A DNA stretch of 64,000 nt from Clostridia bacterium (GTDB lineage: Bacteria; Bacillota; Clostridia; Oscillospirales; CAG-272), in contig JAFTOI010000003.1 of assembly GCA_017463865.1 (NCBI GenBank), positions 5,219 through 69,218 on the forward strand, given 5' to 3'. Shown in pieces: positions 116 to 34,600 of the stretch. How positions within the stretch are numbered: position 1 is the first letter of the stretch; the number at the start of each line of letters is the position of its first letter. The position numbers and the translations under genes are program-made. The notes beneath the pieces were generated by a model. It saw only the letters and a list, made by a program, of their open reading frames with translations. It made no database searches and had not been told where the DNA came from.

Positions 116-177
116 GATATCACTCGGAAAACCGATCAGCTCCGGAGAAAATCCCGCAAAAGTCCATGGAGGTACAA

Positions 178-13052: not shown

Positions 13053-13058
13053 GCAAAA

Positions 13059-14137: not shown

Positions 14138-14161
14138 CGGACACCTCCGTCAAAGAAAACA

Positions 14162-14181
14162 GGGCGGACTTTCGTCCGCCC
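14162..14181 (-). terminator. Rho-independent terminator of the glycan-uptake operon
   Basis: Minus strand GGGCGGAC-GAAA-GTCCGCCC followed by TGTTTTCTTT. It lies 38 nt after stop 14219 and 25 nt before the acyltransferase ATG. Confidence 0.7.
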
Positions 14182-14218
14182 CGTTTGGAGTTTTGATTTG
14201 TTTGCTTCGGCCGCGGAA

Positions 14219-15277
14219 TTAACCGGTGATACCGGAGCGCTCGATACCCTGGATGAGGTAACGCTGGCAGAAGAGGTACATGATGATCAGAGGCATAATG
14301 ATCATCAGACCGCAGGTATTACGGATTGCAGCGTAATACAGGTTCTGGCCGGCATAGTTCATTTCCAGAGACTTCGGAATGTCGATGATATCGGGCATCA
14401 GAGTCGTCTTGGTGGTAGTGAAGAACAACGTCGTGTAGAAGTCGTCGGTCCACTGCCACGAGAAGGCGAACAGGAAGACGGTGATCATCATCGGGACGGA
14501 CAGCGGGAGGATGATCTGGATGAAGGTACGGAACACGCCCGAACCGTCAATATAAGCAGACTCCTCAAGTTCGTCCGGTACGCCGCGGAAGAACTGGCGA
14601 AGCATGAAGATGTACAGACCGTTCTTGAAGCCCAGGCCGCACATCGACAGGATGATCATCGGCCAGTAGGTGTTGGTGAGGTTGAGCTCCGCAAAGGGCA
14701 GAATCTTCAGAGACTCGATGACACCGCCGCCCAGCAGGCTGAAGATGCCGAGGATATCGAAGTAACGGAACTGCATGAACAGCGAGAGCTGCAGGGTCTG
14801 GTGCGGAACGACCATGGTCAGGACAACAGCCAGGAAAACCAGATTGTTACCCTTGAACTTGAACTTCGCAAGACCGTATGCAACAACGCAGCAGACGAAA
14901 GTCTGGATCAGCGCGGTGGAGACCGAGAGAACCAGCGTATTCACGAAGGCCTCCCAGTAACCGAGCTCATTGATGATCGCCTTGTAGATATCCAGCGTGA
15001 AGTGCTTGGGGATCAGGCGAACCGTTACATCAACGAAGTCTTCGGGAGCCATGAAAGAACCCGAGATCTTAGAGAAGAACGGGAAAAGGATGACGTAGGA
15101 GATACCCACGAGAAGAACGAGACGGAAGATAAACCAGACTACCTTCTGGACAAAGAACAGCGAGCCGAACTTGGCCATCAGTCTTTCCTTGAGAGGGGTT
15201 CTTTCGAAATCGACCTTGATCTTGTTCTTCGATTCCTTCATTACAGCAGGAGCTTTTTGCATGTTTTGTGCGTCCAT
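14219..15277 (-). CDS. Carbohydrate ABC transporter permease (MalG/LplC-like), second pair
   Basis: Six predicted TM helices, EAA-type loop (ESAYIDGSGVFRTFIQIILPLSVP), long basic N-terminal extension. Confidence 0.85.
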   Translation of the reverse strand: MDAQNMQKAPAVMKESKNKIKVDFERTPLKERLMAKFGSLFFVQKVVWFIFRLVLLVGISYVILFPFFSKISGSFMAPEDFVDVTVRLIPKHFTLDIYKAIINELGYWEAFVNTLVLSVSTALIQTFVCCVVAYGLAKFKFKGNNLVFLAVVLTMVVPHQTLQLSLFMQFRYFDILGIFSLLGGGVIESLKILPFAELNLTNTYWPMIILSMCGLGFKNGLYIFMLRQFFRGVPDELEESAYIDGSGVFRTFIQIILPLSVPMMITVFLFAFSWQWTDDFYTTLFFTTTKTTLMPDIIDIPKSLEMNYAGQNLYYAAIRNTCGLMIIMPLIIMYLFCQRYLIQGIERSGITG

Positions 15278-15289
15278 TGTTTACCCTCC

Positions 15290-16261
15290 TTAATCCCTTC
15301 TCTGGTAGAAGACATATGCCGACATGACACCAGCAACAGCCGCGATGATCAGCATGACGATAATGAAGTACATCCAGGACATTGCGGAGGAGATGACGTT
15401 ACCGTCAGCCTGCTCGTAAACGCCGGAGATAAAGGTCATGACTTGGTTCGATTCGGATGTGAAGGAGTCGATGATGGTATAAATGCCGTTTACCAGGATC
15501 ATGGGACTGATCATCGGGAAGGTGATCTTCCAGAAGGTTTCCCATGCGGTTGCGCCGTCGATCGAGCAGGACTCGTAGATGGCGGGCGAGATGGACTGCA
15601 GGCCGGAGAGGAAGATCAGCATCTGTACGCCGGAACGGTTGACGATGTTATAGATGTTGTTGATCATCGTTGTAACATAGGTAACCAGTTCTGAACCGAC
15701 CTTCATGTTGGCGAACAGTCGTTCGACGTCCATGGCGGAGACAAGCTCGGAGGCGACGCTCTCGCCGGAGCCATCGTTGATACCTTCGGAGCCTTCCATG
15801 TACTCAGACATGATGTTCTGTGCGTCGATCGACTCGATCAGACCGGTGGACAGGATGACCGGGACGAAGAAGATCGCACGGAACGCTGCACGGCCGAACA
15901 TCTTCTGGTTCAGCAGAACAGCCATGAACAGGGAGAAAATAACGATTGCGGGGATATCGAAGCAAAGCTGCTTCAGACCGGAGACCAGCGTCTTGACGAA
16001 GTCAGGGTCGACAAAGAGGGCCTCCTGATAGTTCTGCAGGCCAACCGGGAGCAGCTCGAAGCCGCCGCCCGTGATGGGCTTGATGCGATAGAAACTCAGA
16101 CGAATGGACTCGATGATAATGGGAAGGTAGATGATGAGGAAGCCAAGCACGAACGGGAGGACGAAGACCCAACCCGCGCGAGCCTTCTTCCGGTCAAGAG
16201 AAGCGGGCCGCTTATTTTTCGGCGCGGACTTAGCCGCAGTTTTTGTATTCGTCATATTCAC
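15290..16261 (-). CDS. Carbohydrate ABC transporter permease (MalF/LplB-like), second pair
   Basis: TM-rich. EAA loop ESCSIDGATAWETFWKITFPMISP. Confidence 0.85.
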   Translation of the reverse strand: MNMTNTKTAAKSAPKNKRPASLDRKKARAGWVFVLPFVLGFLIIYLPIIIESIRLSFYRIKPITGGGFELLPVGLQNYQEALFVDPDFVKTLVSGLKQLCFDIPAIVIFSLFMAVLLNQKMFGRAAFRAIFFVPVILSTGLIESIDAQNIMSEYMEGSEGINDGSGESVASELVSAMDVERLFANMKVGSELVTYVTTMINNIYNIVNRSGVQMLIFLSGLQSISPAIYESCSIDGATAWETFWKITFPMISPMILVNGIYTIIDSFTSESNQVMTFISGVYEQADGNVISSAMSWMYFIIVMLIIAAVAGVMSAYVFYQRRD

Positions 16262-16272
16262 ACCTCTCTTTC

Positions 16273-19200
16273 TTAGTTAATACGGATGAAACCAAACTCG
16301 GGGATGGTGTAGGTCGTGCCATTGTCAACAACGGTAACGGAGAAGTAGTTGTAGTTGAGGTAGAAGACGACGCCGCCTTCGTAGGTGACCTTCACAATAC
16401 GACCGTCATCGGTGGTGTACTTGGTGTACTGGTAGCCTTCCTCTTCCTCGGTCTCGATGATGAAGCTGGGCGTGCTGGTTGCAGGCTTCTCAGCGGGGAC
16501 ATAGACCTCGCCGGCCTCTTCGGCCTTACGCTTTGCGCGGGCCTCCTCGAGGGCTGCCTTGCGGGCTGCTTCCTCTTCCTTGGCCTTCTGCTCAGCTGCT
16601 TCAGCTTCAGCTGCGAGCTTATCTGCTTCGATCTCGTCTGCGTCGGGCACACGCTCACCGATGAGGAACTCATGGTCAACGATCAGCTTGGTCTGCAGAT
16701 CCTTGGTGACCTCATTGAGAGCCTGGTAGCGCTCGACGAGCTCGTCGAACCAGATATCATAGCGGACGGAGTAGTACTGGCTGAACTGATAGTCTTCCTT
16801 CAGCTTCTCGGTGTTCTGATAGGACAGCGTGAAGTAGAGGGATGCGCCGTTCTCGATGGCCTTAAGGAAATCGTAACCGATGTCACCGGCCATGTTGATC
16901 GGCGTGCCGGCGAACTGTACGCGGCCGTGGAGAACCATACCCATGAACGGGATGGAACGGCTGGCCTTGAGGAAACGGGAGGAATCCAGCGGTACATTGA
17001 GCAGGTGGTCGACATAGGGCAGCGCGTAAGCGTTACCGCCATCAGCCATGACATTCGCGTAATCCTCGCTGATCTGCTTGAGCATATCAACGGTGAATTC
17101 CTTGTTGTCCTCGCGGTTGTACGGTTCGTCTTCATCGAAGTCGGAGTTCAGATCGGATGCGAGGGTGGAGACCGAAATACCGGTGTTCTGGTATTCCTGG
17201 TACTCCTTGTTGAGCTTATCGTAGAAGTACGAGTAGTAAGCGGGCGAGATGGCCAGCTCACCGTAGCTCTCGAAGGACTGGTAAGTTGCGGAATAGTAAC
17301 GACGGGAAGTGTAACGGTCGTCGATGGTCTTGATGGCGTGCTTCTTGAGGTTCAGGCTGTCGAAGAGCATGTTCAAATCGGTGTACGCGAAGTCAAACTC
17401 AGGGTACACACCGAAGCCCTTCTCCTTGGAATAATCGACCAGATCCTGGAAGCCGTCGGCACCGCCGACTGCCTTTTCCCACTCCAGCTTGCCGGGGATC
17501 TCACTGTACATACCGCCATTGGCGAAGCCGGTGAGACGGAAGTTGATGTTGGTGATGCCCTCTGCGGAGAGCTCGTTGTACATGGTCTTGATATCCTCGA
17601 AGGTGGTCAGAGGCGTCATCACGTTGACCGGGATGGACATGATCTTCTCGAGGGTCTCAAGAGTACCGAACGACTCAATGTACAGCGGAACATCGGTCTT
17701 GACATCCGCCTCGGTAAGGCGGGTCAGGATGCCCTTGGATTCCCAGTAATCGCCGACCGCCTTAGCCATACCGGTGTAGGTAGGCTCATAGGTGTTCTCG
17801 AGCTTGTTAGCCTCAGCGATATCGGGATCGGTCAGCATGATGACGCGGATCTTGTAGTTGCCGACGTACTTACGGTCGGAAACGACAGTCCAAGTCGCGT
17901 TGGAGCCGACGGAGATGGCATCGCGGAGGTTGTAGGAGTCCTTCGGACGCGGCACGACGATGGTCGTGACCGAGTGGAACATGTGGAGCTGACCGCCGTG
18001 GATGGAGGAAACCTCAGCCAGTGCGTCACCCTCTTCAATGATGGCAACGAAACCGCGATCCTCGCTGTACTCGTAATCCTCGTTCTTGGTGCCCATCACA
18101 GCCTCGGTGGTGACGCCGGTGGTGGGATCGGTGGTCGCTTCGGAGATGACGTACTCCACTTCACGGGTACGGGTGTCGGTGATATTCTCAACCAGACCGT
18201 AGACAGGCATACGCATGGTCTCAAAGTGTGCACCCGAGACATTGTGGTATGCGAAGTCCATGCCGTAGAGCTTACCGGTCAGGGTGGTGGAGGACAAGGC
18301 TGCGACATCCTCAAAGTTGATGATGGCACCCGAGCCGTCGGGGATCAGGGTGTAACCGGTGTTCGGGGAAGCGCCGGCGCCCAGATAGGGCAGCACCTGA
18401 ATGTTGGTGAGCTGATACTCGGACTCGTCGAAACGCAGGCCGTTGAAGGGGACGCGGATGTTCATGCCCCACTCGTCGAGGGTATACTCGATGGCAAGGC
18501 GGAAGAGTGCGGGAGCGCGGTCGGCGCCTTCGTACTCGGTCTCAGCGTGGACTTCGTCCAGCGTTTCATAGGTGAACAGGGGGCACCATTCCTTGATGTA
18601 GCCCTCGATGGTGTTCAGGTCGTTCTCAGTTGCGGTGGGGTCGAAGACGTAGACCGCCATCTTCTTGGTGATCGGGAAGGTCGAGTGCAGCTCCAGAACG
18701 GCGCGCTCGGACTCTTCCTGAGAGGGATCCTTCAGGGTGTAGAAGGCTTCGACCTTCTTATAAGCCCAGCTGTCCTCAATGTTGGCCAGGATCAGATTTT
18801 CGAGCTTGGACTTCTCGATCATACGCGGGACCAGCTTACGGGTCTCCTCGCGGCCGATGGTGTACTCGATACGCACACCGTTCTTGATGCTCTTAACCTT
18901 GATCTGCTTACGGACAGCGGCCTCCTGGTAGCTGTAGAAATACTTCTCCTGGTCATTATCGGTGTACTTGATAATGATCTGGGACATCAGCTGCTTCTTG
19001 GTGGACTCAGAGCCATTGGAAGCAGCAACGTTGTAGGGGTTGGTGAACATGGTCTGGCCGCTTGCCAGATTGGTCCATGCGACCTCGCCCGAGTAGTAGT
19101 CTACATACACCTTAAAACCGTAAAGGTCTTCGATCATGACGTCCATGGTCGCAAGCTTTTCTTCGGGCGTCTTGAACTCCTTCGTCACATAGTTGATGAT

Positions 19201-19329
19201 GTCCTTCTCGACACCATCCTTGCCGATGTAGGTTTTTTCCTCATCGGCGGCGCTGACGGGGAGCACCGTGAGAGAACCGACCAGCATCAACACAGCTAAG
19301 AGGGCCGAAATAATTCTAAACTTTTTCAT
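16273..19329 (-). CDS. Large secreted protein of unknown function (possibly DUF5696-type, glycan-active)
   Basis: Type-I signal peptide (...LPVSA|ADEEK). 1018 aa with no catalytic motif recognisable by eye. Lys/Glu/Ala coiled-coil near the C-terminus (AAEAEAAEQKAKEEEAARKAALEEARAKRKAEEAG). The DUF5696 resemblance is from memory and unverified. Confidence 0.6.
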   Translation of the reverse strand: MKKFRIISALLAVLMLVGSLTVLPVSAADEEKTYIGKDGVEKDIINYVTKEFKTPEEKLATMDVMIEDLYGFKVYVDYYSGEVAWTNLASGQTMFTNPYNVAASNGSESTKKQLMSQIIIKYTDNDQEKYFYSYQEAAVRKQIKVKSIKNGVRIEYTIGREETRKLVPRMIEKSKLENLILANIEDSWAYKKVEAFYTLKDPSQEESERAVLELHSTFPITKKMAVYVFDPTATENDLNTIEGYIKEWCPLFTYETLDEVHAETEYEGADRAPALFRLAIEYTLDEWGMNIRVPFNGLRFDESEYQLTNIQVLPYLGAGASPNTGYTLIPDGSGAIINFEDVAALSSTTLTGKLYGMDFAYHNVSGAHFETMRMPVYGLVENITDTRTREVEYVISEATTDPTTGVTTEAVMGTKNEDYEYSEDRGFVAIIEEGDALAEVSSIHGGQLHMFHSVTTIVVPRPKDSYNLRDAISVGSNATWTVVSDRKYVGNYKIRVIMLTDPDIAEANKLENTYEPTYTGMAKAVGDYWESKGILTRLTEADVKTDVPLYIESFGTLETLEKIMSIPVNVMTPLTTFEDIKTMYNELSAEGITNINFRLTGFANGGMYSEIPGKLEWEKAVGGADGFQDLVDYSKEKGFGVYPEFDFAYTDLNMLFDSLNLKKHAIKTIDDRYTSRRYYSATYQSFESYGELAISPAYYSYFYDKLNKEYQEYQNTGISVSTLASDLNSDFDEDEPYNREDNKEFTVDMLKQISEDYANVMADGGNAYALPYVDHLLNVPLDSSRFLKASRSIPFMGMVLHGRVQFAGTPINMAGDIGYDFLKAIENGASLYFTLSYQNTEKLKEDYQFSQYYSVRYDIWFDELVERYQALNEVTKDLQTKLIVDHEFLIGERVPDADEIEADKLAAEAEAAEQKAKEEEAARKAALEEARAKRKAEEAGEVYVPAEKPATSTPSFIIETEEEEGYQYTKYTTDDGRIVKVTYEGGVVFYLNYNYFSVTVVDNGTTYTIPEFGFIRIN

Positions 19330-19355
19330 TCGTTCTTTCTCCTATCTGTTTTGTC

Positions 19356-21485
19356 TTAAAGTCGGTAGGTAATTTCGGTGATGATGTTGGTAACGAAGCT
19401 GACGATCTTACCAAGCAGGGTCGAGAAGAGGATACCGATGAACATGATGACAACCATGCCGACGATGGTGCAGAGCGAGATGACCAGGTTCTTCGTCATG
19501 GAGTAGTCATGGGTGACCATCATACCAAAGAAGATGAGCAAGCCGCACCAGATGAAACCGATGTTGACCAGCAGGTTCAGGATCGTCTTTTCACTGGAAA
19601 CAATGAAGTTGGAAGCGATGGTCGTGGGGATAATCATCAGCGGCAGAGGGATGAGCGAGTAGGAGGTTGCAATGAAGATATCCTTGAAGCTGCCTTCACC
19701 GTCGAACAGAGTGGTCAGACACCAGTTCGCGACGACCCACAGGAAGAGGGGAACCAGAACCGAGATGGCCTGGGAGAAGATTGTGGTGTACGAACCGCGG
19801 GGGTTCATAACATAACCGACACCGATCGCCTGGTAGAAGAAGGTAACAATGACGATGATGAGGTAGACGATAGCCGCACGCAGCGAGCCGCGCTTCTCAT
19901 GCTTGAGATCCCAGAAACCATCGAAGGGGTGGAACATCAGGTGGAAGCCATAGAGCAGCTCCTCCTTGAAGGTACGCTTGCCGCCCTTGGTTGCTGCCTT
20001 GAGGTTGACCTTAGCAGCATACTTGAAGAAGAAGACAAACGCGACAACAAGGACGATCACGGCCACAGGGATAAGCAGGATGTACTTGGTGATCCACTCT
20101 TTACGCAGTTCCTTGTAGGCATCCGAGTAGTTGGTGGTATCGTAAGCGGACTTGAAGTAGCTCAGTGCCTCCTTGTACTCGGCACTGCGGTACAGCGACT
20201 GACCGATACCGATGTATGCGGTGTCGAAGTTGGAGTTGCGCTTCAGGATCTCGGTCCAGTCATCAACAGCCAGCTCATACTGACGGTTGTTCTGGTGTGC
20301 GAGGGCCTGGATGATGGTGTCACCGTACTCGGTGCGCTTGAAGACGGTGAAGTTATCGGCCGTCTTATCGAGGACGAGCATGGTATCACCCTGGTAAACA
20401 ACTGCCTCGATGGAGGAGAGGTTACCGAGCTGCTGGCCCTTATCGCCGAAGGCGAAGAGGAGGTTACCGTCGAAGTCGTAGGTAAAGATCTTCTGACGCT
20501 TTTCGTCGATGATCGACCAGGTCTTCTCGGGGCCGACGGCAACATCGATGATCTTGGACGCGCCGCGGATCTCAGAGGTAGAGCTGCTGGAGACCTGAAC
20601 CTCACCGCCAGGGGCGAAGAAGCCGTTACGGCGCATAATCTCGGAACCGGCTGCGTTTAGCATCTTGACCGGTGCATAGTCGCCGGACTTGGACTTGATG
20701 GCAGCCTGCTGCTTGCTTGCATCGATGGAGGAGGTGGTAACATAAATGAAGCCATCCTCATTGATCGTGATGTTGTTGAACTCGGTCGGAACGTAGGAAG
20801 CAGTCAGTTCGCGCTGCTCCTTGGTCTGGAAGCGTCTCCAGATGATATCAAGCGCATTGGCGTAAACCTTCTGCGCACCGATGAAGCCGGTGAATTCACC
20901 CTCATCGGTCATAACGATGATACCCTGATAGGTGGTGGAGGAAACGACGTACAGACGGTTGTACTGGTCAACCGCGATGGCGACCGGCTTGTAGACGGCG
21001 CCCTCGGAGAAGAGGTTGGACTCAGGCTGGGGAATGATCTTGATGAAGTTACCCTCAAGGTCGAAGGTAACGATACGGTTTGCGTCGGTATCGCAGACGT
21101 AGATGGTGTCATCGGTGACGAAAACGCCGGAGGGAGAGGTAAGCTCATCCTTAACGCCCTGGTCATTGATGAACTGCTTTTCGCCGAGGCTGAACTTCAG
21201 CTTATAGTAACGGTCGAGAACATGAACCATGTTATTCTTTGCGTCAACAAGGTAAACGTTCATGTTCTTGTCAACGAAGAGGTCACGCGGGTCATCGAAG
21301 GCCTTCTTGAGGCCCATGTAGTTGGAGTCGACCGTCATGATGGGGGTATAAGCATCAGGGGAGTTCAGCGGGAAACCATCGATGGAGTAGGTGTAAGTCT
21401 GGTAAGGCTTTGCAGCGCTTACCGGAACAGCGAAGAGCATGACGGCGGCGAAAACCAACGCGACAATGCGAATAATCTTTTTCAT
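19356..21485 (-). CDS. NHL-repeat beta-propeller / TPR / Yip1-type polytopic membrane fusion protein
   Basis: Signal peptide (VPVSA|AKP). NHL-like repeats (DPRDLFVDKNMNVYLVDAKNN; SPSGVFVTDDTIYVCDTDANRIVTFD; KPVAIAVDQYNRLYVV). One TPR-like segment, then 5-6 TM helices in the C-terminal ~240 aa. Confidence 0.7.
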   Translation of the reverse strand: MKKIIRIVALVFAAVMLFAVPVSAAKPYQTYTYSIDGFPLNSPDAYTPIMTVDSNYMGLKKAFDDPRDLFVDKNMNVYLVDAKNNMVHVLDRYYKLKFSLGEKQFINDQGVKDELTSPSGVFVTDDTIYVCDTDANRIVTFDLEGNFIKIIPQPESNLFSEGAVYKPVAIAVDQYNRLYVVSSTTYQGIIVMTDEGEFTGFIGAQKVYANALDIIWRRFQTKEQRELTASYVPTEFNNITINEDGFIYVTTSSIDASKQQAAIKSKSGDYAPVKMLNAAGSEIMRRNGFFAPGGEVQVSSSSTSEIRGASKIIDVAVGPEKTWSIIDEKRQKIFTYDFDGNLLFAFGDKGQQLGNLSSIEAVVYQGDTMLVLDKTADNFTVFKRTEYGDTIIQALAHQNNRQYELAVDDWTEILKRNSNFDTAYIGIGQSLYRSAEYKEALSYFKSAYDTTNYSDAYKELRKEWITKYILLIPVAVIVLVVAFVFFFKYAAKVNLKAATKGGKRTFKEELLYGFHLMFHPFDGFWDLKHEKRGSLRAAIVYLIIVIVTFFYQAIGVGYVMNPRGSYTTIFSQAISVLVPLFLWVVANWCLTTLFDGEGSFKDIFIATSYSLIPLPLMIIPTTIASNFIVSSEKTILNLLVNIGFIWCGLLIFFGMMVTHDYSMTKNLVISLCTIVGMVVIMFIGILFSTLLGKIVSFVTNIITEITYRL

Positions 21486-21497
21486 TGGTTTCCTCCT

Positions 21498-22370
21498 TTA
21501 ATCCTTCATACCGCTCGAGCCCATGGTCTCGATGATATTCGACTGAGAAATAACGAAGACGAGAATCGGCACCATCATCATAACGACAGTGGAAGCCGCA
21601 CCCGCGCCGGCACGCTTGATACCGCCCGCGGTGATCTGACCGATTGCATAGTTGAAGGTCTTCAGCTGCTCCGAGTGGATGTAGATCGAGGCGCCCTCGT
21701 TCCACAGATCCTTGAAGCGGTAGATGATCAGGGTAAGCCAAGCGGGCTTAACCATCGGCATTGCGATCGTCCAGAAGATCTTCAGCTCATGCGCACCGTC
21801 CAGACGCGCCGACTCAAGGACGGCACCCGAGACGTTGGTCTCCATGAACTGCTTCATGAGGTACAGACCCAGGGTAGAAGCAAAACCGGGGATGATGACT
21901 GCGGCGTAGGTATCGACCCAGCCGAGCCAGGACATGATGATGAAGTTGACCAGACCGGTAACCGTCGCGTGGAACATCAGCGAGGTACGGATGGTCTTGA
22001 ACATCAGCTTTCCACCGGGGAAGTTGATCTTCGCAAAGGCGTAAGCAGCCAGCGAGGCGAAGAACAGGTGACCTGCGGTACCAACGACCGAGATGAACAC
22101 GGTGTTGAAGATGTAGCGGGAGAAGGGAACCCAGGAGTCATTCATCAGAGTGAACAGATCCTTGAAGTTCTTGAAGGTCGGCTTCACAACATAGAAGCGC
22201 GGGGGGAACATCCACAGCTCATCAAGGGGCTTCAGCGACTGCATGACAACATAAAGCATCGGCAGGAACATGAACGCGCCAAGAAGGACGAGCAGGATGG
22301 TAATGCCCGTATCACCGCCGGCCGAGCGGTTCAGGACAACTTTATGACCTCTTGTTCTTAATCTTGCCAT
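21498..22370 (-). CDS. Carbohydrate ABC transporter permease (MalG-like), first pair
   Basis: EAA loop ESARLDGAHELKIFWTIAMPMVKP and six TM helices. Confidence 0.85.
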   Translation of the reverse strand: MARLRTRGHKVVLNRSAGGDTGITILLVLLGAFMFLPMLYVVMQSLKPLDELWMFPPRFYVVKPTFKNFKDLFTLMNDSWVPFSRYIFNTVFISVVGTAGHLFFASLAAYAFAKINFPGGKLMFKTIRTSLMFHATVTGLVNFIIMSWLGWVDTYAAVIIPGFASTLGLYLMKQFMETNVSGAVLESARLDGAHELKIFWTIAMPMVKPAWLTLIIYRFKDLWNEGASIYIHSEQLKTFNYAIGQITAGGIKRAGAGAASTVVMMMVPILVFVISQSNIIETMGSSGMKD

Positions 22371-22371
22371 A

Positions 22372-23316
22372 TTACTGTCCCACCTTTGAGAGAATTTTCT
22401 TGACCAGGAAGTTAGCCCCGATCATGATCGCGAAGAGGACAACGGCGATGGCCGACGCGTAACCGACCTCGAAACGCGTGCTGCCGTAGTCATCCAGATG
22501 GTGCATGATGGTATGTGCGGCATAGTCGACAGACGGGAAGCCGCAAAGGTTGGTAACAACGCCGCCGAAGCCGAAGCAGGAGGTGATCTGCATGATTGCA
22601 CCGAACATCAGCTGAGGCTTCATGGACGGCAGGGTAACATACCAAAGCTCCTGCCAACGGTTGCGGATACCGTCAACGGCTGCAGCCTCATACATCGAGC
22701 GGTCGATACCCTGAAGACCGGCGATGAAGGACAGGAACGCGGTACCGAGCGAGGTCCAGAGGGCAACGACGATACAGAGGGGCATGACCCAGTCTGCATC
22801 CTCGAAGAACTGGATCTCAGTGGTGATGATACCCAGCTTCAGCAGGGTACCGTTGACCCAGCCGTAGGAGTCACCAGAGAACAGCGTCTTCCAGATGAGG
22901 TAGACGTTACCGGAGATGGAAGGTGCGTAGAAGATCAGCGTGACGACCGCGCGGATCTTGGGGGGCAGCTCATTGATGAACCATGCGACCATCAGTGCCA
23001 TGATGTAAGACACCGGGCCGACGATGACAGCGAAGACCATGGTGTTCTGCACTGCGATCATAAAGATATCGTCATCAAGGAACAGGCGGATGTAGTTGTC
23101 GAGGAACAGGAAGGTAGGCGGCTCGAGCAGGTTGAACTCGGTGAAGCTCAGGAAGATCGAGAAGACGACGGGGATGACAGTGAAGATGGTAAAGAGCAGA
23201 ACATAGGGGGCAACCATCAGGTACGCGACCTTGTTGCGCTTCATCTCTTTCCAGGTCCACTGCGCACGCGTCATGTCTTTGCGCGATACCGCTTTAGGTG
23301 CTGCTGTTTTTGACAT
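22372..23316 (-). CDS. Carbohydrate ABC transporter permease (MalF-like), first pair
   Basis: EAA loop EAAAVDGIRNRWQELWYVTLPSMKP. Only 1 nt separates it from the next gene. Confidence 0.85.
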   Translation of the reverse strand: MSKTAAPKAVSRKDMTRAQWTWKEMKRNKVAYLMVAPYVLLFTIFTVIPVVFSIFLSFTEFNLLEPPTFLFLDNYIRLFLDDDIFMIAVQNTMVFAVIVGPVSYIMALMVAWFINELPPKIRAVVTLIFYAPSISGNVYLIWKTLFSGDSYGWVNGTLLKLGIITTEIQFFEDADWVMPLCIVVALWTSLGTAFLSFIAGLQGIDRSMYEAAAVDGIRNRWQELWYVTLPSMKPQLMFGAIMQITSCFGFGGVVTNLCGFPSVDYAAHTIMHHLDDYGSTRFEVGYASAIAVVLFAIMIGANFLVKKILSKVGQ

Positions 23317-23362
23317 TTGCGCTCTCTCCTTATTTTAAGATTTCGTGGATCAAATGTATCGC

Positions 23363-26332
23363 TTATTCAGCGGCGCCGCCGGCTGCTTCAGCCTCGAGAT
23401 CAGCCAGCGTCTGGCCGAGCTCAAGCGTGCGCAGACCGAACTCGCTTCTCTTACGGGTGATCTCCTTGTTGATCGTCGGGATGTAGCTCAGCAGCTCGCT
23501 GACCGGGTCGGCCTTGTCGTTGTAGGCAGACAGGAACGCGAAGTTGGTGTAACGGTCAACGATGTAAGCACCGGGATAGTTCGGGATCGAAGCGAGGTTG
23601 TTGAACTGCATGGCGAGGTTCTGATACTCGGAGGTGGTCCAAGGCAGAGACTCGAGTGCAGTCATGTTTGCAGTTGCATGCTTAGCAGACGGGCCGAGGA
23701 TTGCAACCATCTCGTTGGAGTACTTGGTCTGGCAGTCAGCACCGACGTGCCACTTCATGAACTCCCATGCGCCTTCCTCATTGTCGCAGCCGTTCATCAT
23801 AACGATTGCGGAGACGGTGGAGACCGAGACGTTGTTGATGTTGCCATTCTCATCCATGATACCCGGCAGCGGGACGAACTCCCACAGACCGCGGATCTCG
23901 GTTGCGAAGACGATCATCTGGTTGTAAGTACCGTTGTAGGACGCGATACCGATCGGCATCTCACCGGTACGGAAGCGGTTCGCGAAGTCATAGGTATAGG
24001 GGAAGGAGTACATGGTGAACATGTTGCACATCATCTCGAAGGACTCGAGCGCGACGTTGGAGTCGAGGTTGATGCGCATACCGTTGTCGGCGAAGAGCTC
24101 GCCGCCCATCTGGTACAGGAACATCTTGTAGTCCTTGGAAAGACCGATGGTCATGTTGTTCGCCTGCAGGATCGGCACAGCGGCCAGCACGTCATCCCAA
24201 GTCTTCGGGATGTCGATGCCCAGCTCAGCCAGAACGTCCTTGCGGTAGAACATCATCGGGAAGTTCTGGGTCTCGGGCAGACCGTAGTAATGGAACTCAC
24301 CTTCGGCATTCTCGATACCCAGCGGAAGCATGGCAGCCTCGTTGAAATCCTTCAGGGTATCATCGAAGCCGGCATAGCCGTCAATCGGCATGATCGCGCT
24401 TCGGATCGCGTAGTTGATAACGTCGCCCTGGCCGAGACCGATGTAAACATCAGGACCCATGTTCGCCAGAACCGAGGGGAGCAGCGTACCGCCCGCGACC
24501 AGCTTCAGGTTGACCGGGATACCGGTCTGAGGCGTGAAGTCGTTGTTGATGAGGTTACGGATGACCTGTGTCTGGTCACGACCGTAAGCCAGCCAGACCT
24601 CAACCGCGTCATCGCTGGTAGAGTCCTCGGACATCGCGCCCATACGGTTGTAGTTGCGGAAGAAGGACTGGATGAAGGACTGGAACTCAAAGCCAAGGGA
24701 GGCGAAGAAGCCAGCCGTTGCCTGAGGCAGCTTGTTGCCGACAGGCTGGATCATGATGTAGTCAAGGCGCAGGGGCTGGGACTTGGCGTCGCCGACCCAG
24801 GTACCAAGCGAACCGATGTAGGACTTGAGCTGTTCGAGGTTCTTGGCGACCTCGTCCTCGTCCGTACCCATACGGTTGAGCAGGTATGCGACCTTGTCAA
24901 GGGTAGCAGTGTTCGAACCCTTGGTGCCTGCCAGATCGGCCAGCATGGTCGAAACCTCGGTAATGGTTCTCGACTGTACGATCAGGTCGATGATGGTGTC
25001 AGGCATGCTGCGGGAGAAGCCGTAGTCACGGTACTCGTCAGGCGTAGCGCCGGTCAGCTTGAGGATCTCAAGGTAGTCGGCGTTGATGCTTGCCAGCGAG
25101 TCGTCGATCTGGCGGATAACGTCACCCATCTCGCCGAGTGCAACCTCGAACTCGATGACGTAGGTCTTGCCGGCCTCGAAGTAGAACTCGAACTCAGTCA
25201 CGCCATTGTTCAGCGGAGCGGACTGCCAATCGGTCGAGTAGTTGAAGCGAAGCTCGGTGGCCTCCTTGAAGGGGATCTCACCGTTGATGCGCAGGGTACG
25301 CGAAACGAACATACCGTCGAGCAGCTCCTGCTTGAAGCGGGGCACGATCTGATACAGACCGCTTTCCGGAACGGTGAACTCGTAGCGGACCCACTGACCG
25401 GAGGTCTGCCACTTGTCGCCGCCGATGGTGTTCAGCAGAGAACGCGAAGCGTCATGCGGAACGGTAGCAGCCGAGGTTCTGTCCTCGAGCGGGTAGATGG
25501 TCTGAGAAGAGGTTGCAGTGGGGTACTCGGCGTCGATCGTCACGACACTGCCGGACGATGCTGCCTTGTAGCCGTTAGCTGCGTACTCAGCCTGGATCTC
25601 GCTGTAGGGACGCATTTCCTCGTGGGCAGCCAGAGTGATCGACTTGATCGCCATCGGCTCGTTGACAGCCTCGAGCGAAATGATGTTGTCGCCCTTCTCG
25701 AGGACAAACTCAAAGCTCTCGCTGTAGAAGCCGTCGGCGTCGCGGAACTCATAGGTGCGCCACTCGGGGGACTGTACCATGGTGGGGCGCAGCTCGTTGC
25801 CGTCGATGTCGGAACGGAAGAGTCGGCCCGCTTCATCGGGCGTCTCGTACTCGTTCTTCCAGACCTTGGACATGGTCAGGTAACGAGCCTCGGCGAAGGG
25901 GACCTTGCCATTGATCATAAAGATACGCTCAATGGAAGCAACCTTACCCTCGACCGGATAGTACTCGATGCTGATGCTGTACTTCGCGGTGGAGGGGATA
26001 TTCACCTTCCACGAAGCGGTACCCGAGTTGGGCAGCAGCAGACCGTTCTCACCGTCCCAGGTGCCCTTGGACACCTCAGCATCGGTGTTGTCCTTATCGT
26101 AATTGGTTGCGTCAATTACGATATCCTTCGAAGCTCTTGGAACATCTGCGTTCTTTTCCAAGTACTCTTCATACGAAATTGCATTAAGCAGCTCTTTGAC
26201 CTCGTCGATCGTCTGATCGGTAACAGACGTGCCCTTGCTGTCAGCTGCGCTGACGCCAAGCACCATACTGCCAGAGACCATAAGGATCGCGAGGAGAAGA
26301 GCTGTTAATTTTCTGAATTTCGCTTTCATCAT
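23363..26332 (-). CDS. Giant extracellular solute-binding protein: two CBM-like beta-sandwich modules plus a family-1 SBP domain
   Basis: Signal peptide ...LGVSA|ADS with no lipobox Cys. Internal duplication (ASWKVNIP...RIFMINGKVPFAEA versus QWVRYEFTVP...RTLRINGEIPFKEA). The C-terminal half is SBP-like (YGLPETQNFPMMFYRKDVLAELGIDIPKTWDD). AGGAGG RBS 8 nt upstream. Confidence 0.8.
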   Translation of the reverse strand: MMKAKFRKLTALLLAILMVSGSMVLGVSAADSKGTSVTDQTIDEVKELLNAISYEEYLEKNADVPRASKDIVIDATNYDKDNTDAEVSKGTWDGENGLLLPNSGTASWKVNIPSTAKYSISIEYYPVEGKVASIERIFMINGKVPFAEARYLTMSKVWKNEYETPDEAGRLFRSDIDGNELRPTMVQSPEWRTYEFRDADGFYSESFEFVLEKGDNIISLEAVNEPMAIKSITLAAHEEMRPYSEIQAEYAANGYKAASSGSVVTIDAEYPTATSSQTIYPLEDRTSAATVPHDASRSLLNTIGGDKWQTSGQWVRYEFTVPESGLYQIVPRFKQELLDGMFVSRTLRINGEIPFKEATELRFNYSTDWQSAPLNNGVTEFEFYFEAGKTYVIEFEVALGEMGDVIRQIDDSLASINADYLEILKLTGATPDEYRDYGFSRSMPDTIIDLIVQSRTITEVSTMLADLAGTKGSNTATLDKVAYLLNRMGTDEDEVAKNLEQLKSYIGSLGTWVGDAKSQPLRLDYIMIQPVGNKLPQATAGFFASLGFEFQSFIQSFFRNYNRMGAMSEDSTSDDAVEVWLAYGRDQTQVIRNLINNDFTPQTGIPVNLKLVAGGTLLPSVLANMGPDVYIGLGQGDVINYAIRSAIMPIDGYAGFDDTLKDFNEAAMLPLGIENAEGEFHYYGLPETQNFPMMFYRKDVLAELGIDIPKTWDDVLAAVPILQANNMTIGLSKDYKMFLYQMGGELFADNGMRINLDSNVALESFEMMCNMFTMYSFPYTYDFANRFRTGEMPIGIASYNGTYNQMIVFATEIRGLWEFVPLPGIMDENGNINNVSVSTVSAIVMMNGCDNEEGAWEFMKWHVGADCQTKYSNEMVAILGPSAKHATANMTALESLPWTTSEYQNLAMQFNNLASIPNYPGAYIVDRYTNFAFLSAYNDKADPVSELLSYIPTINKEITRKRSEFGLRTLELGQTLADLEAEAAGGAAE

Positions 26333-26805
26333 TCACTTTTCCTCCTACCAAGATTTTTTCATCAGAGCTTCCGCTCCATGAATGGGGGACGAACTTGCCA
26401 TCAACAATGCCCTGCCGTTTCCGCACCGGTCGAAGTTTATTCTTTCGCGCGGAAACCGAAGAACCGGACATTTCCACTTTCGGATAAACACAGCGGCACG
26501 GGGACGGCCGGGGGCTGTCCACAAGCTGCTATATTTATATGAAAGAATAAGCTGTGTTATTTGTACTTTTCTGCCGCAGTTGCCCCGGACGCAGATTCCC
26601 GGAGCCGCCTTTTCCCGTGCAGACGCCCGGGGAACCGGCAAAAACCTACAGCCAACATAACCTATACGCCCTGAGATGCCAAAGCGCACAGCATTATTGG
26701 TATGCAATTCTCCGCGCCGCCGAGGCGGACGCAGAAAGAAAACAAGGCCGAGGCGCACGCAACGTATGGCATTGCGTTGCTTTGAGCCCAATTTTCCATA
26801 CAAAT

Positions 26806-26834
26806 ATAATAGCACAGCCCCGCAAAATTGTCAA
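26806..26834 (-). promoter_or_regulatory. Sigma-A promoter TTGACA-17-TATTAT for the glycan-uptake operon
   Basis: Minus strand: -35 at 26829..26834, -10 at 26806..26811, exact 17-nt spacer. Predicted TSS near 26799, about 467 nt upstream of ATG 26332. Confidence 0.65.
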
Positions 26835-26969: not shown

Positions 26970-26986
26970 CGTAAATATTATTTACG
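26970..26986. promoter_or_regulatory. 17-bp perfect palindrome CGTAAATA-T-TATTTACG (candidate operator)
   Basis: Perfect 8-bp arms, about 140 bp upstream of the operon -35. Confidence 0.35.
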
Positions 26987-27130
26987 TTATTTTGTTAAGT
27001 TTCCAGCTTTCCGGGGCGTATTTTGTGCGGTTTTCGGCGTTTTTTTCGGTGATTCGAGAGAGCATGTCCGGGTTTGTAAATATGATTTACCCTCTGCCAA
27101 CGATTTGCTTGCGTGTGCAACCATTCCATC

Positions 27131-27148
27131 GCCCACAAATCTGTGGGC
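27131..27148. promoter_or_regulatory. 18-bp palindrome GCCCACA-AATC-TGTGGGC (candidate operator or hairpin)
   Basis: Perfect 7-bp arms with a 4-nt centre, in the divergent intergenic region. Confidence 0.3.
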
Positions 27149-27410
27149 AATTTGCACAATTTTGCGTCCAAAATTTCTACACCTGTACAAAATCACCAAA
27201 TCCCGCTTTTTAGCCAATTTTTTGCGTGAAATTCGTCGTTTTTCCTGATTTGCAGCACATTTTTATCCCTTTATTACCTTGTTTGTTATTTGTTCCCAAC
27301 ACTCGTCAAAAGCCTCCTGTGCCCGCGCCGACCACCCACCTCAGCACCGCACGGTCAATGCCCTTCCCTGCCCCATCGCGGAGATTTTCGCACAATCCTG
27401 CCGTAACCGC

Positions 27411-27439: not shown

Positions 27440-27484
27440 AGGTACAGCGAAAACCGCCAAACTTCAACAAAGCGAGGATCAAAC

Positions 27485-28450
27485 ATGTATTATCTCGGGA
27501 TCGACCTGGGCGGCACCAACATCGCCGCCGGAATCGTAGACGAATCGTATCAGATGATCGCCAAAAAGAGCGTGCCCACCAACGCACAGCGCGCACCTGA
27601 GGCCATCATCGCCGACATGGGCCAGCTCTGCCTCGACCTGCTGGCCGAACACAACCTCACGCCGGCCAACATCGAATGCGCCGGCATTGCCTCCCCCGGT
27701 ATCGCCGACGGCCGCACTGGCATGGTCATGTACGCCAACAATCTCCCCTTCTCGAAGACGCCCATCTGCTCCATGCTGGCCGAGCAGACCGGCATCAAGC
27801 GCGTCTGCCTCGACAACGACGCCAACGCTGCCGCCTGGGGCGAGGCCGTTGCCGGCGCAGCGAAGGGGACGACCAACTCGGTCATGATTACCCTCGGCAC
27901 CGGTGTCGGCGGCGGTATCATCATCGACAACAAGGTCTACTCGGGCTTCAACGCGGCCGGCGCTGAGCTGGGCCACATCGTCATCGAGTACGAGGGCCGT
28001 CCCTGCTCCTGCGGCCGCAAGGGCTGCTGGGAGGCCTACAGCTCGGCCACCGGCCTCATCAACATGACCCGCGAAAAGATCGAGGAATGCATGCGCACCG
28101 GCCGTCCCTCGGCCATGATCGAGATGTCGGAGGGCGGCAAGACCGTCTCCGGCCGCACCTCCTTCAACGCCATGCGCGCCGGCGACGAGGCAGCTTCCGA
28201 GGTCGTCGACATGTACATCCGCTATCTGGCCTGCGGCCTGATCAACATCGTCAACATTTTCCAGCCTGAGGTCATCTCGCTGGGTGGCGGCATCTCGAAC
28301 GAGCGCGAGAACCTGCTGAAGCCCCTGATGCCCTTCATCACCGCACAGCAGTACGGTGCAGGTGCCGTCCCGCAGACCGATATTCGCATCGCACAGCTTG
28401 GCAACGACGCCGGCATCATCGGCGCGGCTCTGCTGGGGATGCAGAAGTAA
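27485..28450 (+). CDS. glcK: ROK-family glucokinase
   Basis: N-terminal GIDLGGTN, DNDANAAAWGE, ROK zinc motif CSCGRKGCWEAY. Confidence 0.9.
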   Translation: MYYLGIDLGGTNIAAGIVDESYQMIAKKSVPTNAQRAPEAIIADMGQLCLDLLAEHNLTPANIECAGIASPGIADGRTGMVMYANNLPFSKTPICSMLAEQTGIKRVCLDNDANAAAWGEAVAGAAKGTTNSVMITLGTGVGGGIIIDNKVYSGFNAAGAELGHIVIEYEGRPCSCGRKGCWEAYSSATGLINMTREKIEECMRTGRPSAMIEMSEGGKTVSGRTSFNAMRAGDEAASEVVDMYIRYLACGLINIVNIFQPEVISLGGGISNERENLLKPLMPFITAQQYGAGAVPQTDIRIAQLGNDAGIIGAALLGMQK

Positions 28451-28461
28451 GGACGAAGACC

Positions 28462-31630: not shown

Positions 31631-34600
31631 TTAGCCGCAGATGATAGCCTCAGATGCAAATTCAGCACCAGTAGTGATGAACTTGTAGGTGTTGCCAGTG
31701 GTCAGAACAGGAGTTACAGTACCAAAGTCATCTACATAAGCAATGGTAAGAACACCGTTGTCACCAGTGCGAGTCCAAGTAACCTTCGCGCTGGAACCAG
31801 TGGAAGCAGGACCCCAACCAAGGGTCAGAGCGTTTGCATCAACGGTTGCCCACAGAGTGGCGGTGCCATTCTCAGCAACATTGTAGATCTTAACGCCAGA
31901 GAAGGTCTGGTTGCTAACATTCTGGATAGTGATAACCGAGCCGGTCTCGCCATTTGCAACAGCAACTACGCCTTCCTTAGCAGCCTCAGCATCAGCAGCA
32001 GCCTTATCAGCAGCGGCGATAGCAGCGGTAATCTGAGCAGGACCGTTTGCCTTGATGACATCGGCACGAGCAACGGTGATATCAGCGCCTGCAAGCTCAG
32101 CAGTCAGACGATCGTAGGTTGCCTTTGCAGCAGCTACATCTGCACGATCGTTGTAAGCAGCATCCAGAGCAGCCTGAGCAGCCTTAACAGCTTCAGTAAG
32201 AGCGGTTGCAGCAGCATTCTTGTCTGCATCAGCCTTGTCAGCAGCGGCAGCAGCGGTAACGATCGGGAGGTGCTTAGCAAGCATTGCATTGACCTCAGCG
32301 ATGGTCAGGGAGCCATTGATGGCAGCCTTAGCCACAGCGAGCTCGTCAGCAGCGTAAGCGCCAGCAGCGGCACTCAGAGTCTTGATTGCATCAGACTTTG
32401 CACCAGCAAGAGTAGTGGTGGGAGTGCTGGGAGTGTAATCGTTGATAGCTGCACCCTTGATAACGGTAGCAACGAAGCTCTTACCTGCGACATAGTCGTA
32501 GTACATAGCACCATTGTACTTACCGCCGTCATTGGCGCTGGACTTAGCGTCGTTTACAAGCTCGATGCGGTAGTAACCGTCATCGCAAACATTCTTGATT
32601 GCAGCATTCTCAGTGTAGATCAGAACATCATACGCGAAGGTAACAGCTGCATCATAGAAGTCGTTGTCACCGCTAACAAGCAGGACATTGTTGCTGGGAG
32701 TATCGCCACTCAGAGTAGCAGCAGAATCGTATACAGGAGCATACGCCTTGCCATCCTTTACAAGACCGCCATAGAGGAGATCCTCAAGAACTGCCTTGGA
32801 GTCGGTAGCATACTTAGCAGTGGTAATAGAAGTGGTACCAATGGTAGCGATCGGGATGAGCTTCTCCTCATCGGTCAGCATGGTCCACTCGCCGTTCTTC
32901 TCAGCGTAGATAGCGCCGATCGGCTTGGGAGTGTTGTAGAAGTAACCGCCATAGATAGCATTTGCAGAGTTGTACTCATCCAGGCCACCAACAACCGTTA
33001 CAGTCTCGGTAGCACCAGTGGAGATGTTGTACAGGCCAGTATAGGTGTAAACGATCTTACCGGTCGTAGCGTCGTAAGCTGCAGTTACAGCAGTCTCGTT
33101 GTCAAGATACTCAGCAGAGTTACGGCCAAGAACCATGTAATAGTTGTAACCGCTGGTGGTGTTGGTGGTATCCCAATCGCCATACCAGATGTCCTCGCAG
33201 TTCACATCAGCACTTGCAACAAGGATGAAGTCGTTGCTGATAGAATATGCATAGACAGGGCGAACAGCAGCGGTGGTCTCGGTAGCAGGGACATAGTGGA
33301 AGTCGAGAGTACCGTCCAGAACACCGGTGTAGGTCTTCATGCCGTTCTTACCGATAACGACGAGCTTAGACTCCTCATCGGTAACAACAGCGTACTGAGT
33401 GCTGGTGCTTGCGTTGGTCCAAACAACCTTAGTGGAAATACCATTGATGAAGGAGATGTTAGCAGTCTGCTTCATGTAGGAAGGCTGACGATAGCTTACG
33501 CCATTGTTGCCCCAGTAGAGCTCGTGGTCAGTGTAGATCTCATAAACACCGTCCTCGGAAATACCGGTAACGATGAAGAGATACTGACGCTCGACATTCT
33601 CAACAACTTCAGTTTTAGGATCATCCTTGGTGTTAGGATCATCAACATCAGCAGTCAGGGTCTTGAAGAAGTCAGCGATAACAGCCTTCTTCATGGTCTC
33701 CATAGCATTGTTGCCAAGAGAACCGATACCAGAGAACTGGAACTGGAGAGCTGCGTAGTCCTCAACGAGGAGGCCATAGGAGAAGCCGTTGATAGCACCG
33801 ATCTTGACGATCTGCTGCTCACCGGTCTTGTCAACGTAAGCCTTAACGAGGATGTTACCCTCTGCGTCAACGCCAACGATGTCGCCTTCGTACTCATACG
33901 AAGTGTAAGCAAGGCCATTGACCTTGTTATAGGTGCCGTAGTCGAATGCCATCCAGCCGCAATCATTGCCAGCGTCGCCAACCTTGATTACGCGGCCTGC
34001 AAGAACGAGGTAGCTCATCTTCTTGTAGGTGTTACCAACAAGAGAAGCATAGATGGTCTCGGAGTAGCCGTAGCTGGAGAGATACTCGTCGATGGTCTTC
34101 AGGTCATAAACCTTGGAACCGCCGTAAGGAGTAACAGCAGTCTCGTTCCAACGATAGCCGAGCTTATAGGTCTCGCCGTCGATGGTAACAGTTGCATTGT
34201 TGTAGATGTAGGTAGAAGTACCGCTATTCCAAGCGTAGGTACCCTGGGTCATGTTCTGGACAGTACCAGCAACAGGCTTGCCAAGGTTCTCAACGACGGT
34301 CATAGTGCGGGAGTAGGGGTTGTAGTAGTAAACTACATACTCACCAGATGCAGGACGGCCTTCGCCAAGGAAGAACATCTCGCTCTGCTGAACCTTGCTA
34401 GCGCGAGGAGAGGTACCCCAATCGCCAGAAGTGTTGGTAGCCCAAGCCTTCAGGTCAACATCATTGACCTCAACAATGTACTTCTTGGTGGAGTCAGTGT
34501 AAGCCTTGGACTGATCAAATCTCCAAGCGCCGGTCTCGTTGGAAGCTTCATACTTACCAACAGAGTAAGGGATGTAGATAGCACGATCCCAGTTGCCATC

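Follow-up and report, generated by a model that had tools for sequence, protein, structure and literature searches.

Organization of the seven-gene operon

The 64,000-nt stretch of contig JAFTOI010000003.1 (an uncultured Clostridia bacterium of animal gut origin), hereafter referred to as the window, contains a cassette of seven minus-strand genes (14219–26332) which is a real operon for glycan uptake, bounded by a promoter and a terminator. In operon order, it encodes a giant solute-binding protein (SBP), a first pair of ATP-binding cassette (ABC) permeases (P1a and P1b), a membrane protein in which NHL, TPR and Yip1 domains are fused, a protein with the domain of unknown function DUF5696, and a second permease pair (P2a and P2b; Table 1). 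The initial annotation of this DNA had described seven co-directional genes with gaps of 1–46 nt between a promoter and a hairpin terminator. All seven open reading frames (ORFs) were recovered, with intergenic gaps of 46, 1, 12, 26, 11 and 12 nt from 5' to 3', and both bounding elements were located in the sequence. Pfam and NCBIfam scans agree as well with its domain calls for the SBP, the permeases and the NHL/TPR/Yip1 protein, while the 1018-aa protein was assigned to DUF5696. The interval between the SBP and P1a genes was searched for an internal terminator, and none that separates both genes was found. Inside the operon, promoter-like and terminator-like matches do not exceed the expectation from shuffled sequence.

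Table 1. Positions of the cassette genes, the elements of their control region and further genes discussed in the text, numbered along the 64,000-nt window.
Feature	Position	Strand	Length	Remarks
Giant SBP gene	23363..26332	-	989 aa	
P1a, MalF/UgpA-type permease	22372..23316	-	314 aa	Pfam BPD_transp_1; NCBIfam UgpA/GlcT-like; EAA motif EAAAVDG...LP
P1b, MalG/UgpE-type permease	21498..22370	-	290 aa	NCBIfam UgpE/GlcU-like; EAA motif ESARLDG
NHL/TPR/Yip1 membrane fusion	19356..21485	-	709 aa	
DUF5696 protein	16273..19329	-	1018 aa	
P2a, MalF-type permease	15290..16261	-	323 aa	EAA motif ESCSIDG
P2b, MalG-type permease	14219..15277	-	352 aa	EAA motif ESAYIDG
Intrinsic terminator	14162..14181	-		Hairpin GGGCGGAC-GAAA-GTCCGCCC, then T-run TGTTTTCTTT; read from sequence
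Sigma-70-type promoter	26806..26834	-		TTGACA-17-TATTAT with TG extended -10; 11/12 consensus matches
5' leader	26333..26805	-	~470 nt	Sequence poorly conserved; conserved ribosome-binding site at 3' end
Proximal palindrome	26971..26985	.		GTAAAT-N3-ATTTAC; ~140–150 bp upstream of -35
Distal palindrome	27076..27090	.	15 bp	GTAAAT-N3-ATTTAC, operator-like; ~245 bp upstream of -35
Conserved non-coding blocks	27144..27206	-		Consensus TTTG-TGCAATTTGTACAGG-TGTAGAAAATT ... AATTTTGTGCAAA; presumed regulator-binding region
ROK-family sugar kinase	27485..28450	+	321 aa	Divergent from the cassette control region
ORF, surface-protein candidate	31631..36004	-	1457 aa	
ABC ATPase, exporter-type fusion	50255..51988			
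Lipoprotein, first tandem copy	166..1935	+	~590 aa	Metallo-beta-lactamase-fold domain
Lipoprotein, second tandem copy	2073..3833	+	~590 aa	Metallo-beta-lactamase-fold domain

Conservation of the core in related and distant loci

For comparison, 80 related loci were fetched and five more were obtained from contig look-ups, and gene order was checked by tblastn wherever the contig allowed. The order SBP-P1a-P1b-NHL/Yip1-DUF5696-P2a-P2b is the same in all 84 related loci, which belong to uncultured gut Clostridia, and recurs in ten distant loci, i.e., in Butyrivibrio fibrisolvens, three Paenibacillus, Cohnella, a Roseburia metagenome-assembled genome (MAG), an Acetatifactor MAG and three metagenome contigs. 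The initial annotation had made its reading depend on the linkage of the two large proteins to the permeases in relatives and on their relation to glycan processing; the conserved linkage, together with the glycoside hydrolase (GH) fold described below, speaks in its favor. Two of the loci are filed under unexpected names: a Clostridia-type cassette is found in a record of Methanocorpusculum sp. (L073) and in one of Bulleidia sp. (L015), and these archaeal and erysipelotrich MAGs probably contain it as a binning contaminant.

By tblastn of plasmids, DUF5696 genes with 22–25% identity were detected in Butyrivibrio fibrisolvens D1 and Paenibacillus cellulosilyticus, and all components of both cores are orthologous to those of the window, with identities of 35, 57, 59, 30 + 42, 25, 42 and 46% in operon order for Butyrivibrio. 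The giant SBP orthologs share 35% identity in Butyrivibrio and 28% in Paenibacillus. A search started from the Butyrivibrio protein revealed a short DUF5696 subfamily of ~830–860 aa in Lachnospiraceae, Paenibacillus and Cohnella. DUF5696 relatives are present in at least 558 genomes in a scan of one genome per species, and the profile yielded 5,457 cluster representatives (50% identity, E ≤ 0.001) in a metagenome-scale library. The carriers of the gene set include Firmicutes of both gut and soil.

In nine of the ten distant loci, GH genes and one or two ordinary lipoprotein SBPs are encoded beside the core. The neighboring enzymes are GH113 and GH2 in P. alkalitolerans (L088), GH26 in Cohnella nanjingensis (L089), GH26 and GH113 in P. 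catalpae (L092), two copies of GH53 in the Roseburia sp. MAG (L090), and GH43 in both the Acetatifactor MAG (L091) and B. fibrisolvens (L086), while the three metagenome contigs comprise GH9 and GH26 (L093), GH43, GH35 and GH42 (L094), and GH16 and GH3 (L095). Within these nine loci, the lipoproteins comprise the ordinary SBPs and the large surface GHs; the small GHs remain in the cytoplasm. Seven of the nine also have a gene for LacI, AraC or a histidine kinase in the flanks that were fetched. Since the same core stands beside different GH sets, it looks like a generic, substrate-agnostic uptake chassis, to which the variable neighbors would supply specificity. Consequently, the proposal of a machine dedicated to one polysaccharide had to be abandoned, as GH26/GH113, GH53, GH43 and GH16/GH3 accompany one and the same core in different organisms. 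The claim that the system has only one binding protein is true of the window's clade, but nine of the ten distant loci add ordinary SBPs.

By definition, Gram-positive polysaccharide utilization loci (gpPULs) combine a transporter and a regulator with one or more polysaccharide-degrading enzymes (Sheridan et al., 2016; PMC5320581), and among those of Roseburia and Eubacterium rectale some are listed with '2 x ABC' and hypothetical genes (PMC5320581). All three elements were found within the fetched flanks of seven of the ten distant loci, where the core is part of ABC, GH and regulator loci such as GH53 with LacI, GH43 with a histidine kinase or GH26/GH113 with LacI. The window cassette, in contrast, falls outside this definition, as it comprises the transporter only, without a linked regulator or classified GH. 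A further difference to gpPULs is that the core components of the cassette were not described before.

Two permease pairs and the putative shared ATPase

All four permeases match BPD_transp_1, P1b with 23.7 bits and thus under the Pfam gathering cut-off of 26.4, and by NCBIfam and Pfam they comprise two MalF/UgpA-like and two MalG/UgpE-like proteins. The EAA motif is kept in 71 of 72 P1b, 70 of 76 P2a and 67 of 77 P2b orthologs, and for P1a the commonest sequence variants in an alignment of 69 orthologs read EA[AG]AxDG. Thus the two permease pairs of the initial annotation are confirmed and, with the motif kept in all four subunits, both pairs should dock an ATPase. Across the pairs, P1a and P2a are 24% identical and P1b and P2b 22–24%, which argues that the two pairs diverged long ago. 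In P2a, the N-terminal half is divergent and includes a long extracytoplasmic loop.

An importer ATPase was found neither in the operon, nor in the window, nor adjoining the cassette in any of the 84 related loci. The sole ABC ATPase of the window is fused to an exporter-type membrane domain, in agreement with the earlier statement that the operon and its flanks lack a nucleotide-binding subunit. ABC ATPase motifs near three related cassettes were considered as importer ATPases and rejected: the one near L038 reads SufC-like, and those near L039 and L081 show the same motif at the same position. Many CUT1 importers depend on an orphan ATPase they have in common, such as MsmK in Streptococcus or MsmX in Bacillus subtilis, as the initial annotation had pointed out. 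In P. cellulosilyticus, 37 nt separate the giant SBP gene from a ugpC/msmX-type ATPase gene on its upstream side, and this arrangement in cis directly supports the idea of a shared ATPase.

The giant solute-binding protein

The giant SBP consists of a type-I signal peptide, two beta-sandwiches (residues ~60–235 and ~260–397), a helical bundle (~400–513) and a CUT1 family-1 SBP domain (~570–980). Pfam places SBP_bac_1 on residues 590–861 (E 1e-21) and SBP_bac_8 with E 3e-19. Foldseek matches the C-terminal domain to the sugar SBPs MalE, GL-BP, GltA and RafE, while a sequence profile searched against the PDB points to Lin1841, a sophorooligosaccharide-binding protein (E 8e-11). The AlphaFold2 (AF2) model is confident only in the N-terminal half.

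Two N-terminal modules resembling carbohydrate-binding modules (CBMs) had been predicted. Both are confidently modeled beta-sandwiches, for which Foldseek returned the CBM35 structure 2vzp (TMt 0.68, E 1e-6) and CBM-bearing regions of 5x7o and 6f2p, and a weak similarity connects the two modules (E 5e-4). However, no CBM Pfam match was obtained on these modules, and the predicted structure thus makes them CBM-like in fold only.

Another aspect that sets the giant SBP apart is its relation to the cell surface. As initially annotated, the signal peptides of the three exported proteins of the operon end in VSA↓A and lack a lipobox cysteine, and in the case of the giant SBP this departs from the usual lipoprotein anchor of monoderm SBPs. 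The giant SBP and the DUF5696 protein lack a lipobox in every example examined; neighboring ordinary SBPs and surface GHs have one. Other exported proteins of the window do carry a lipobox, but at least four clear cases were found rather than the seven reported before.

The NHL/TPR/Yip1 membrane protein

The 709-aa protein starts with a signal peptide, followed by a predicted extracellular NHL beta-propeller (~30–380), a TPR region (~390–455), a transmembrane (TM) helix (469–487) and a five-TM Yip1 domain (~515–690). Yip1 (PF04893) matches residues 515–682 with 59.9 bits against a cut-off of 28.6 (E 4e-16), and hydropathy gives five TM segments. The NHL repeat (PF01436) scores 22.6 bits against a cut-off of 20, TPR_16 was matched by Pfam as well, and the matches to NHL domains in the PDB include Thin (E 2e-7) and the PknD sensor (E 1e-3). 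While the window's clade and P. cellulosilyticus encode the NHL-TM and Yip1 parts in one fused gene, nine distant loci have them as separate genes with ~10–22 nt overlap. This fusion and fission argues for a physical association of both parts. Since the split NHL protein retains its C-terminal TM helix, the propeller-TPR ectodomain is presumably anchored in the membrane beside Yip1.

A Yip1-family membrane protein that works with an ABC transporter is known from the YknWXYZ system of Bacillus subtilis, in which YknXYZ, an exporter of the MacB type, has a part in toxin resistance. Both systems encode, and presumably assemble, a bacterial Yip1-domain membrane protein with an ABC transporter. In contrast to the cassette, YknWXYZ lacks an NHL/TPR ectodomain, an SBP and a glycan context.

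The DUF5696 protein

DUF5696 (PF18952) covers the 1018-aa protein with E 2.5e-134, and even with the threshold relaxed to E 10, Pfam returned no other domain. Behind a signal peptide, the AF2 model, for which 28 homologs were used (pLDDT 77, pTM 0.73), predicts an N-terminal beta-sandwich, a (beta/alpha)8 barrel (~545–880) and a C-terminal beta-sandwich with a helical insertion (896–965). The top eleven Foldseek matches of this model in the PDB are all GH129 structures (ZgGH129 5opq, NagBb), followed by GH101, GH31 and GH36, with E 7e-23 and TMt 0.67 for 5opq, E 2e-17 for 5wzr and ~1e-10 for GH101, the whole series extending to 1e-8. Identity to the GH129/GH101 fold relatives is ~10%, and a profile of the 28 DUF5696 sequences found no GH entry in the PDB. 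Judged from the predicted structure, the kinship to GH129, GH101, GH36 and GH31 is at the level of the fold and not one of family membership. Thus, a Pfam domain of unknown function is now assigned a GH-like fold.

DUF5696 shares the succession of beta-sandwich, (beta/alpha)8 barrel and beta-sandwich with GH129 (the alpha-N-acetylgalactosaminidase NagBb and the 3,6-anhydro-D-galactosidase ZgGH129) and with the GH101 endo-alpha-N-acetylgalactosaminidases. In contrast to these enzymes, it has a helical insertion in the C-terminal domain, is obligatorily encoded in an operon with ABC permeases, and most of its partner GH families target beta-linked backbones.

The two DUF5696 subfamilies are 22–25% identical overall, and at least 90% conserved in both of them are D259, D330 (in a PDGxG motif), D357, E431, D729, R738, N765, N811, E825 and H885. 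D330 and D357 belong to the N-terminal domain, D729 (after strand 4) and E825 to the barrel. This deeply conserved acidic, polar and aromatic set looks like an active site. Asp at positions 718, 731 and 781 is not conserved family-wide.

The terminal coiled coil of the initial annotation appears as helix 896–937 in the AF2 model. We considered it as a stalk between an enzyme and a C-terminal anchor and dismissed this idea, since distant members lack the coiled coil, which is thus an insertion inside the C-terminal beta-sandwich. The C-terminal beta-domain was likewise discarded as a shared docking module, because a hidden Markov model derived from it finds DUF5696 proteins only. In several relatives (L011, L014, L018, L029, L049, L056, L070 and others; P0048 and P0259), the insertion reaches 450–1500 aa where the window has a coiled coil of 40 residues, and is helical and rich in Ala, Glu, Lys and Thr; Pfam detected no domain on these long insertions. 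DUF5696 and the SBP vary together in total length (Spearman 0.77 over 62 loci, uncorrected for phylogeny), which points to an association between the two secreted proteins or to an envelope layer that each of them has to span.

Expression of the cassette

The -35 element, the TGn and the -10 element of the promoter, together with ~20 nt downstream, are kept across 32 species according to phylogenetic footprinting, and 33 of 66 relatives have the strict pattern TTGAC[AT]-N14-TGnTATTAT ahead of the SBP gene.

The codon usage of the cassette is distinct as well. GGT accounts for 0.33–0.61 of the glycine codons in the seven genes and CGT for 0.30–0.56 of the arginine codons, while both shares are 0.02–0.20 in ordinary genes. 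The initial annotation had likened this choice to pckG and an S-layer gene. The bias is real, and the 1457-aa ORF in question resembles the cassette (GGT/Gly 0.48, CGT/Arg 0.54), but pckG is only partly alike (0.29 and 0.12). The same ORF has a low GC content at third codon positions (0.57) and a GGT/CGT/GCT bias as in the cassette. Its label as an S-layer gene was not confirmed, as it has no Pfam match. The bias in all seven genes fits translational selection for high expression and in this way backs the high expression that had been deduced before. With the strong conserved promoter and the codon optimization, the cassette in the window's clade probably serves nutrient acquisition as a core system with high expression.

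Proposed function of the core

The glycan-uptake reading of the operon is well supported. Beyond that, we consider it on balance likely that the core is the conserved chassis of a Gram-positive family of ABC glycan-uptake systems with a four-part mechanism. The secreted giant SBP would capture glycan chains by its two CBM35-like modules and pass oligosaccharides on via its C-terminal CUT1-type binding domain. Two anciently diverged MalF/MalG-type heterodimers, both presumably ATPase-competent, would then carry the sugars in, import being the direction of transport that we assume, and an unlinked shared ATPase of the MsmX/UgpC type would deliver the energy. The NHL/TPR/Yip1 protein and DUF5696 may assemble into a membrane-tethered extracellular platform that keeps the non-lipidated SBP and its glycan at the translocators. 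In the window's clade, i.e., abundant uncultured Clostridia of gut and rumen, the chassis stands by itself, and no GH, regulator or ordinary SBP is linked to it.

Within such a platform, a generic role of DUF5696 in capture, retention or trimming is favored. Since depolymerases are encoded separately and the linkages of fold relatives and partner substrates for the most part do not match, DUF5696 is better understood as a generic platform part than as the primary enzyme, and it is probably not the substrate-specific depolymerase. The initial annotation had attributed a processing function to it; the predicted structure and Foldseek revealed a GH fold, but its processing role is putative, as the substrate-specific surface enzyme of the distant loci is a separate lipoprotein GH.

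Several points weigh against the proposed chassis. The window cassette is set among housekeeping genes, which is unusual for a nutrient locus, and no classified GH, regulator or ordinary SBP is adjacent to it. The SBP domain itself is poorly modeled (pLDDT 30–70), and the length co-variation of SBP and DUF5696 ignores phylogeny. Furthermore, the fold relatives of DUF5696 are enzymes for alpha-linked sugars, but the polymers attacked by most partner GH families are beta-linked. Finally, the searched literature contains no publication on DUF5696/PF18952 and nothing relevant on combinations of Yip1, NHL and ABC components. As had been stated initially, the NHL-Yip1 and 1018-aa components are functionally undescribed.

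The cassette agrees with the CUT1 importers of Firmicutes in its family-1 SBP domain, in a MalF/MalG-type pair with EAA loops and in an operon without ATPase gene. It differs from them in that it has two permease pairs instead of one, in that its SBP is ~2.5x the normal size, with CBM-like modules, a helical bundle and no lipid anchor, and in that three extra conserved components (NHL/TPR, Yip1 and DUF5696) are embedded between the permease pairs. The core is therefore best described as a variant of Firmicutes ABC-importer-based glycan uptake that is uncharacterized in the searched literature.

A more far-reaching interpretation, which we put forward only tentatively, is that the core represents a distinct multiprotein surface machine of monoderms and a functional counterpart of SusC/D. 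The SBP, DUF5696 with its helical arm and the NHL/TPR/Yip1 protein would be assembled on two ABC translocators and feed long chains into them, with DUF5696 as a generic loader, gate or clamp, or acting on the cell's own wall, in place of a hydrolase for one substrate. Like the Sus-like systems of Bacteroidota, the core would couple surface capture and a GH-fold protein to a transporter, and the chassis is reused across glycan loci. This likeness is an analogy only: there is no homology, and the cassette belongs to monoderms and has ABC translocators in place of a TonB-dependent transporter. If this interpretation is true, type-I ABC importers would have an accessory mechanism of a new kind.

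It is rather unlikely that DUF5696 is a non-hydrolytic receptor which, together with NHL-Yip1, loads P2a/P2b in place of the SBP. The system would then consist of two modules, SBP with P1a/P1b and NHL-Yip1 with DUF5696 and P2a/P2b, and the gene order splits cleanly into these modules in every locus. The four permeases but single SBP of the window's clade fit this idea, and a substrate-agnostic chassis speaks against a specific hydrolase. Position 718, where barrel strand 4 ends, points in the same direction, as all members of the window's subfamily have Ser there; the two distant members that were aligned have Asp, and across the wider short subfamily the position is unconserved. However, the conservation of D729, E825, D330 and D357 (at least 90% in both subfamilies) is a pattern typical of an active site, and nine of the ten distant loci encode ordinary SBPs by which the second pair could be supplied. 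In addition, type-I importers are not known to be loaded by GH-fold proteins.

In our view just as unlikely is that DUF5696, in line with a literal reading of the processing in the initial annotation, acts as an active glycosidase which prepares plant glycans for import by trimming a feature that many of them share, for instance alpha-galactosyl or arabinosyl side chains. Alpha-linked side chains are found on galactomannan, arabinogalactan and arabinoxylan, and the GH129/GH101/GH36/GH31 fold, the conserved acidic, polar and aromatic barrel residues and the secretion signal would suit such an enzyme. Yet the core is also found in a GH16/GH3 locus of beta-glucan type, the substrates of which lack these side chains, and no sequence-level match to any CAZy-type PDB entry was obtained.

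That the cassette of the window's clade serves the cell's own envelope (recycling or remodeling of wall or S-layer glycans, or opening of the wall for large ligands) instead of dietary glycans would agree with a stand-alone core among housekeeping genes, with the strong conserved promoter and a high-expression codon bias like that of the 1457-aa surface-protein candidate, and with DUF5696 insertions and SBP extensions that co-vary in length as expected if both span an envelope layer, but is highly improbable, given that the homologous core of cultured relatives sits in plant-polysaccharide loci and that the SBP domain and the permeases are of CUT1 sugar-importer types.

How Gram-positive gut bacteria take up fiber is much less clear than the Sus paradigm of Bacteroides, and loci for mannan, galactan, arabinan/xylan and beta-glucan all appear to draw on the proposed chassis. 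Its cultured carriers, Butyrivibrio fibrisolvens D1, several Paenibacillus and Cohnella, make the accessory roles, the need for two translocators and the retention of the SBP testable.

Neighboring genes

The neighbors of the cassette are housekeeping genes and partly conserved, with iscS, nifU and mnmA upstream and alaS downstream. In the vicinity of the window cassette and of the related loci, classified GHs, regulators and ordinary SBPs are absent. A 486-aa lipoprotein encoded downstream of the cassette in four loci was dropped as a candidate SBP, since it is not recognizable as such. The ROK-family sugar kinase gene, which is found upstream of the cassette in ~10 related loci, was ruled out as the cassette regulator, as the protein is kinase-sized and lacks a helix-turn-helix domain. 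At one end of the window, two tandem genes encode paralogous lipoproteins with a metallo-beta-lactamase-fold domain (Table 1). In five related loci (e.g., L014), a similar lipoprotein of 742 aa is encoded downstream of the cassette.

Leader and upstream control region

Among relatives, the 5' leader measures 98–599 nt, and an Rfam scan of positions 12000–29000 revealed no riboswitch and no leader RNA. A 156-aa ORF within the leader (26345–26815) was rejected as a gene, since the leader is variable in length and unconserved. The long leader may stabilize the mRNA of a highly expressed operon.

The palindrome GTAAAT-N3-ATTTAC matches twice in the window, compared to 0.02 expected matches, and both copies lie in the intergenic region upstream of the SBP gene, ~105 bp apart. 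Of 85 loci, 29 carry the exact palindrome in front of the SBP gene, and copies of the relaxed form GTAAA[TA]-N3-[AT]TTTAC are mostly located ~150 or ~235–255 bp from the -35 element in related loci. The pair is probably the binding site of a regulator encoded away from the cassette. Its core GTNA-N7-TNAC may resemble TnrA/GlnR-type boxes. Further upstream, the non-coding blocks at 27144–27206 (TTTGTACAGGTGTAGAAA..., AATTTTGTGCAAA) contain columns that are 80–99% identical over 32 species, the SBPs of which are only ~50% identical.

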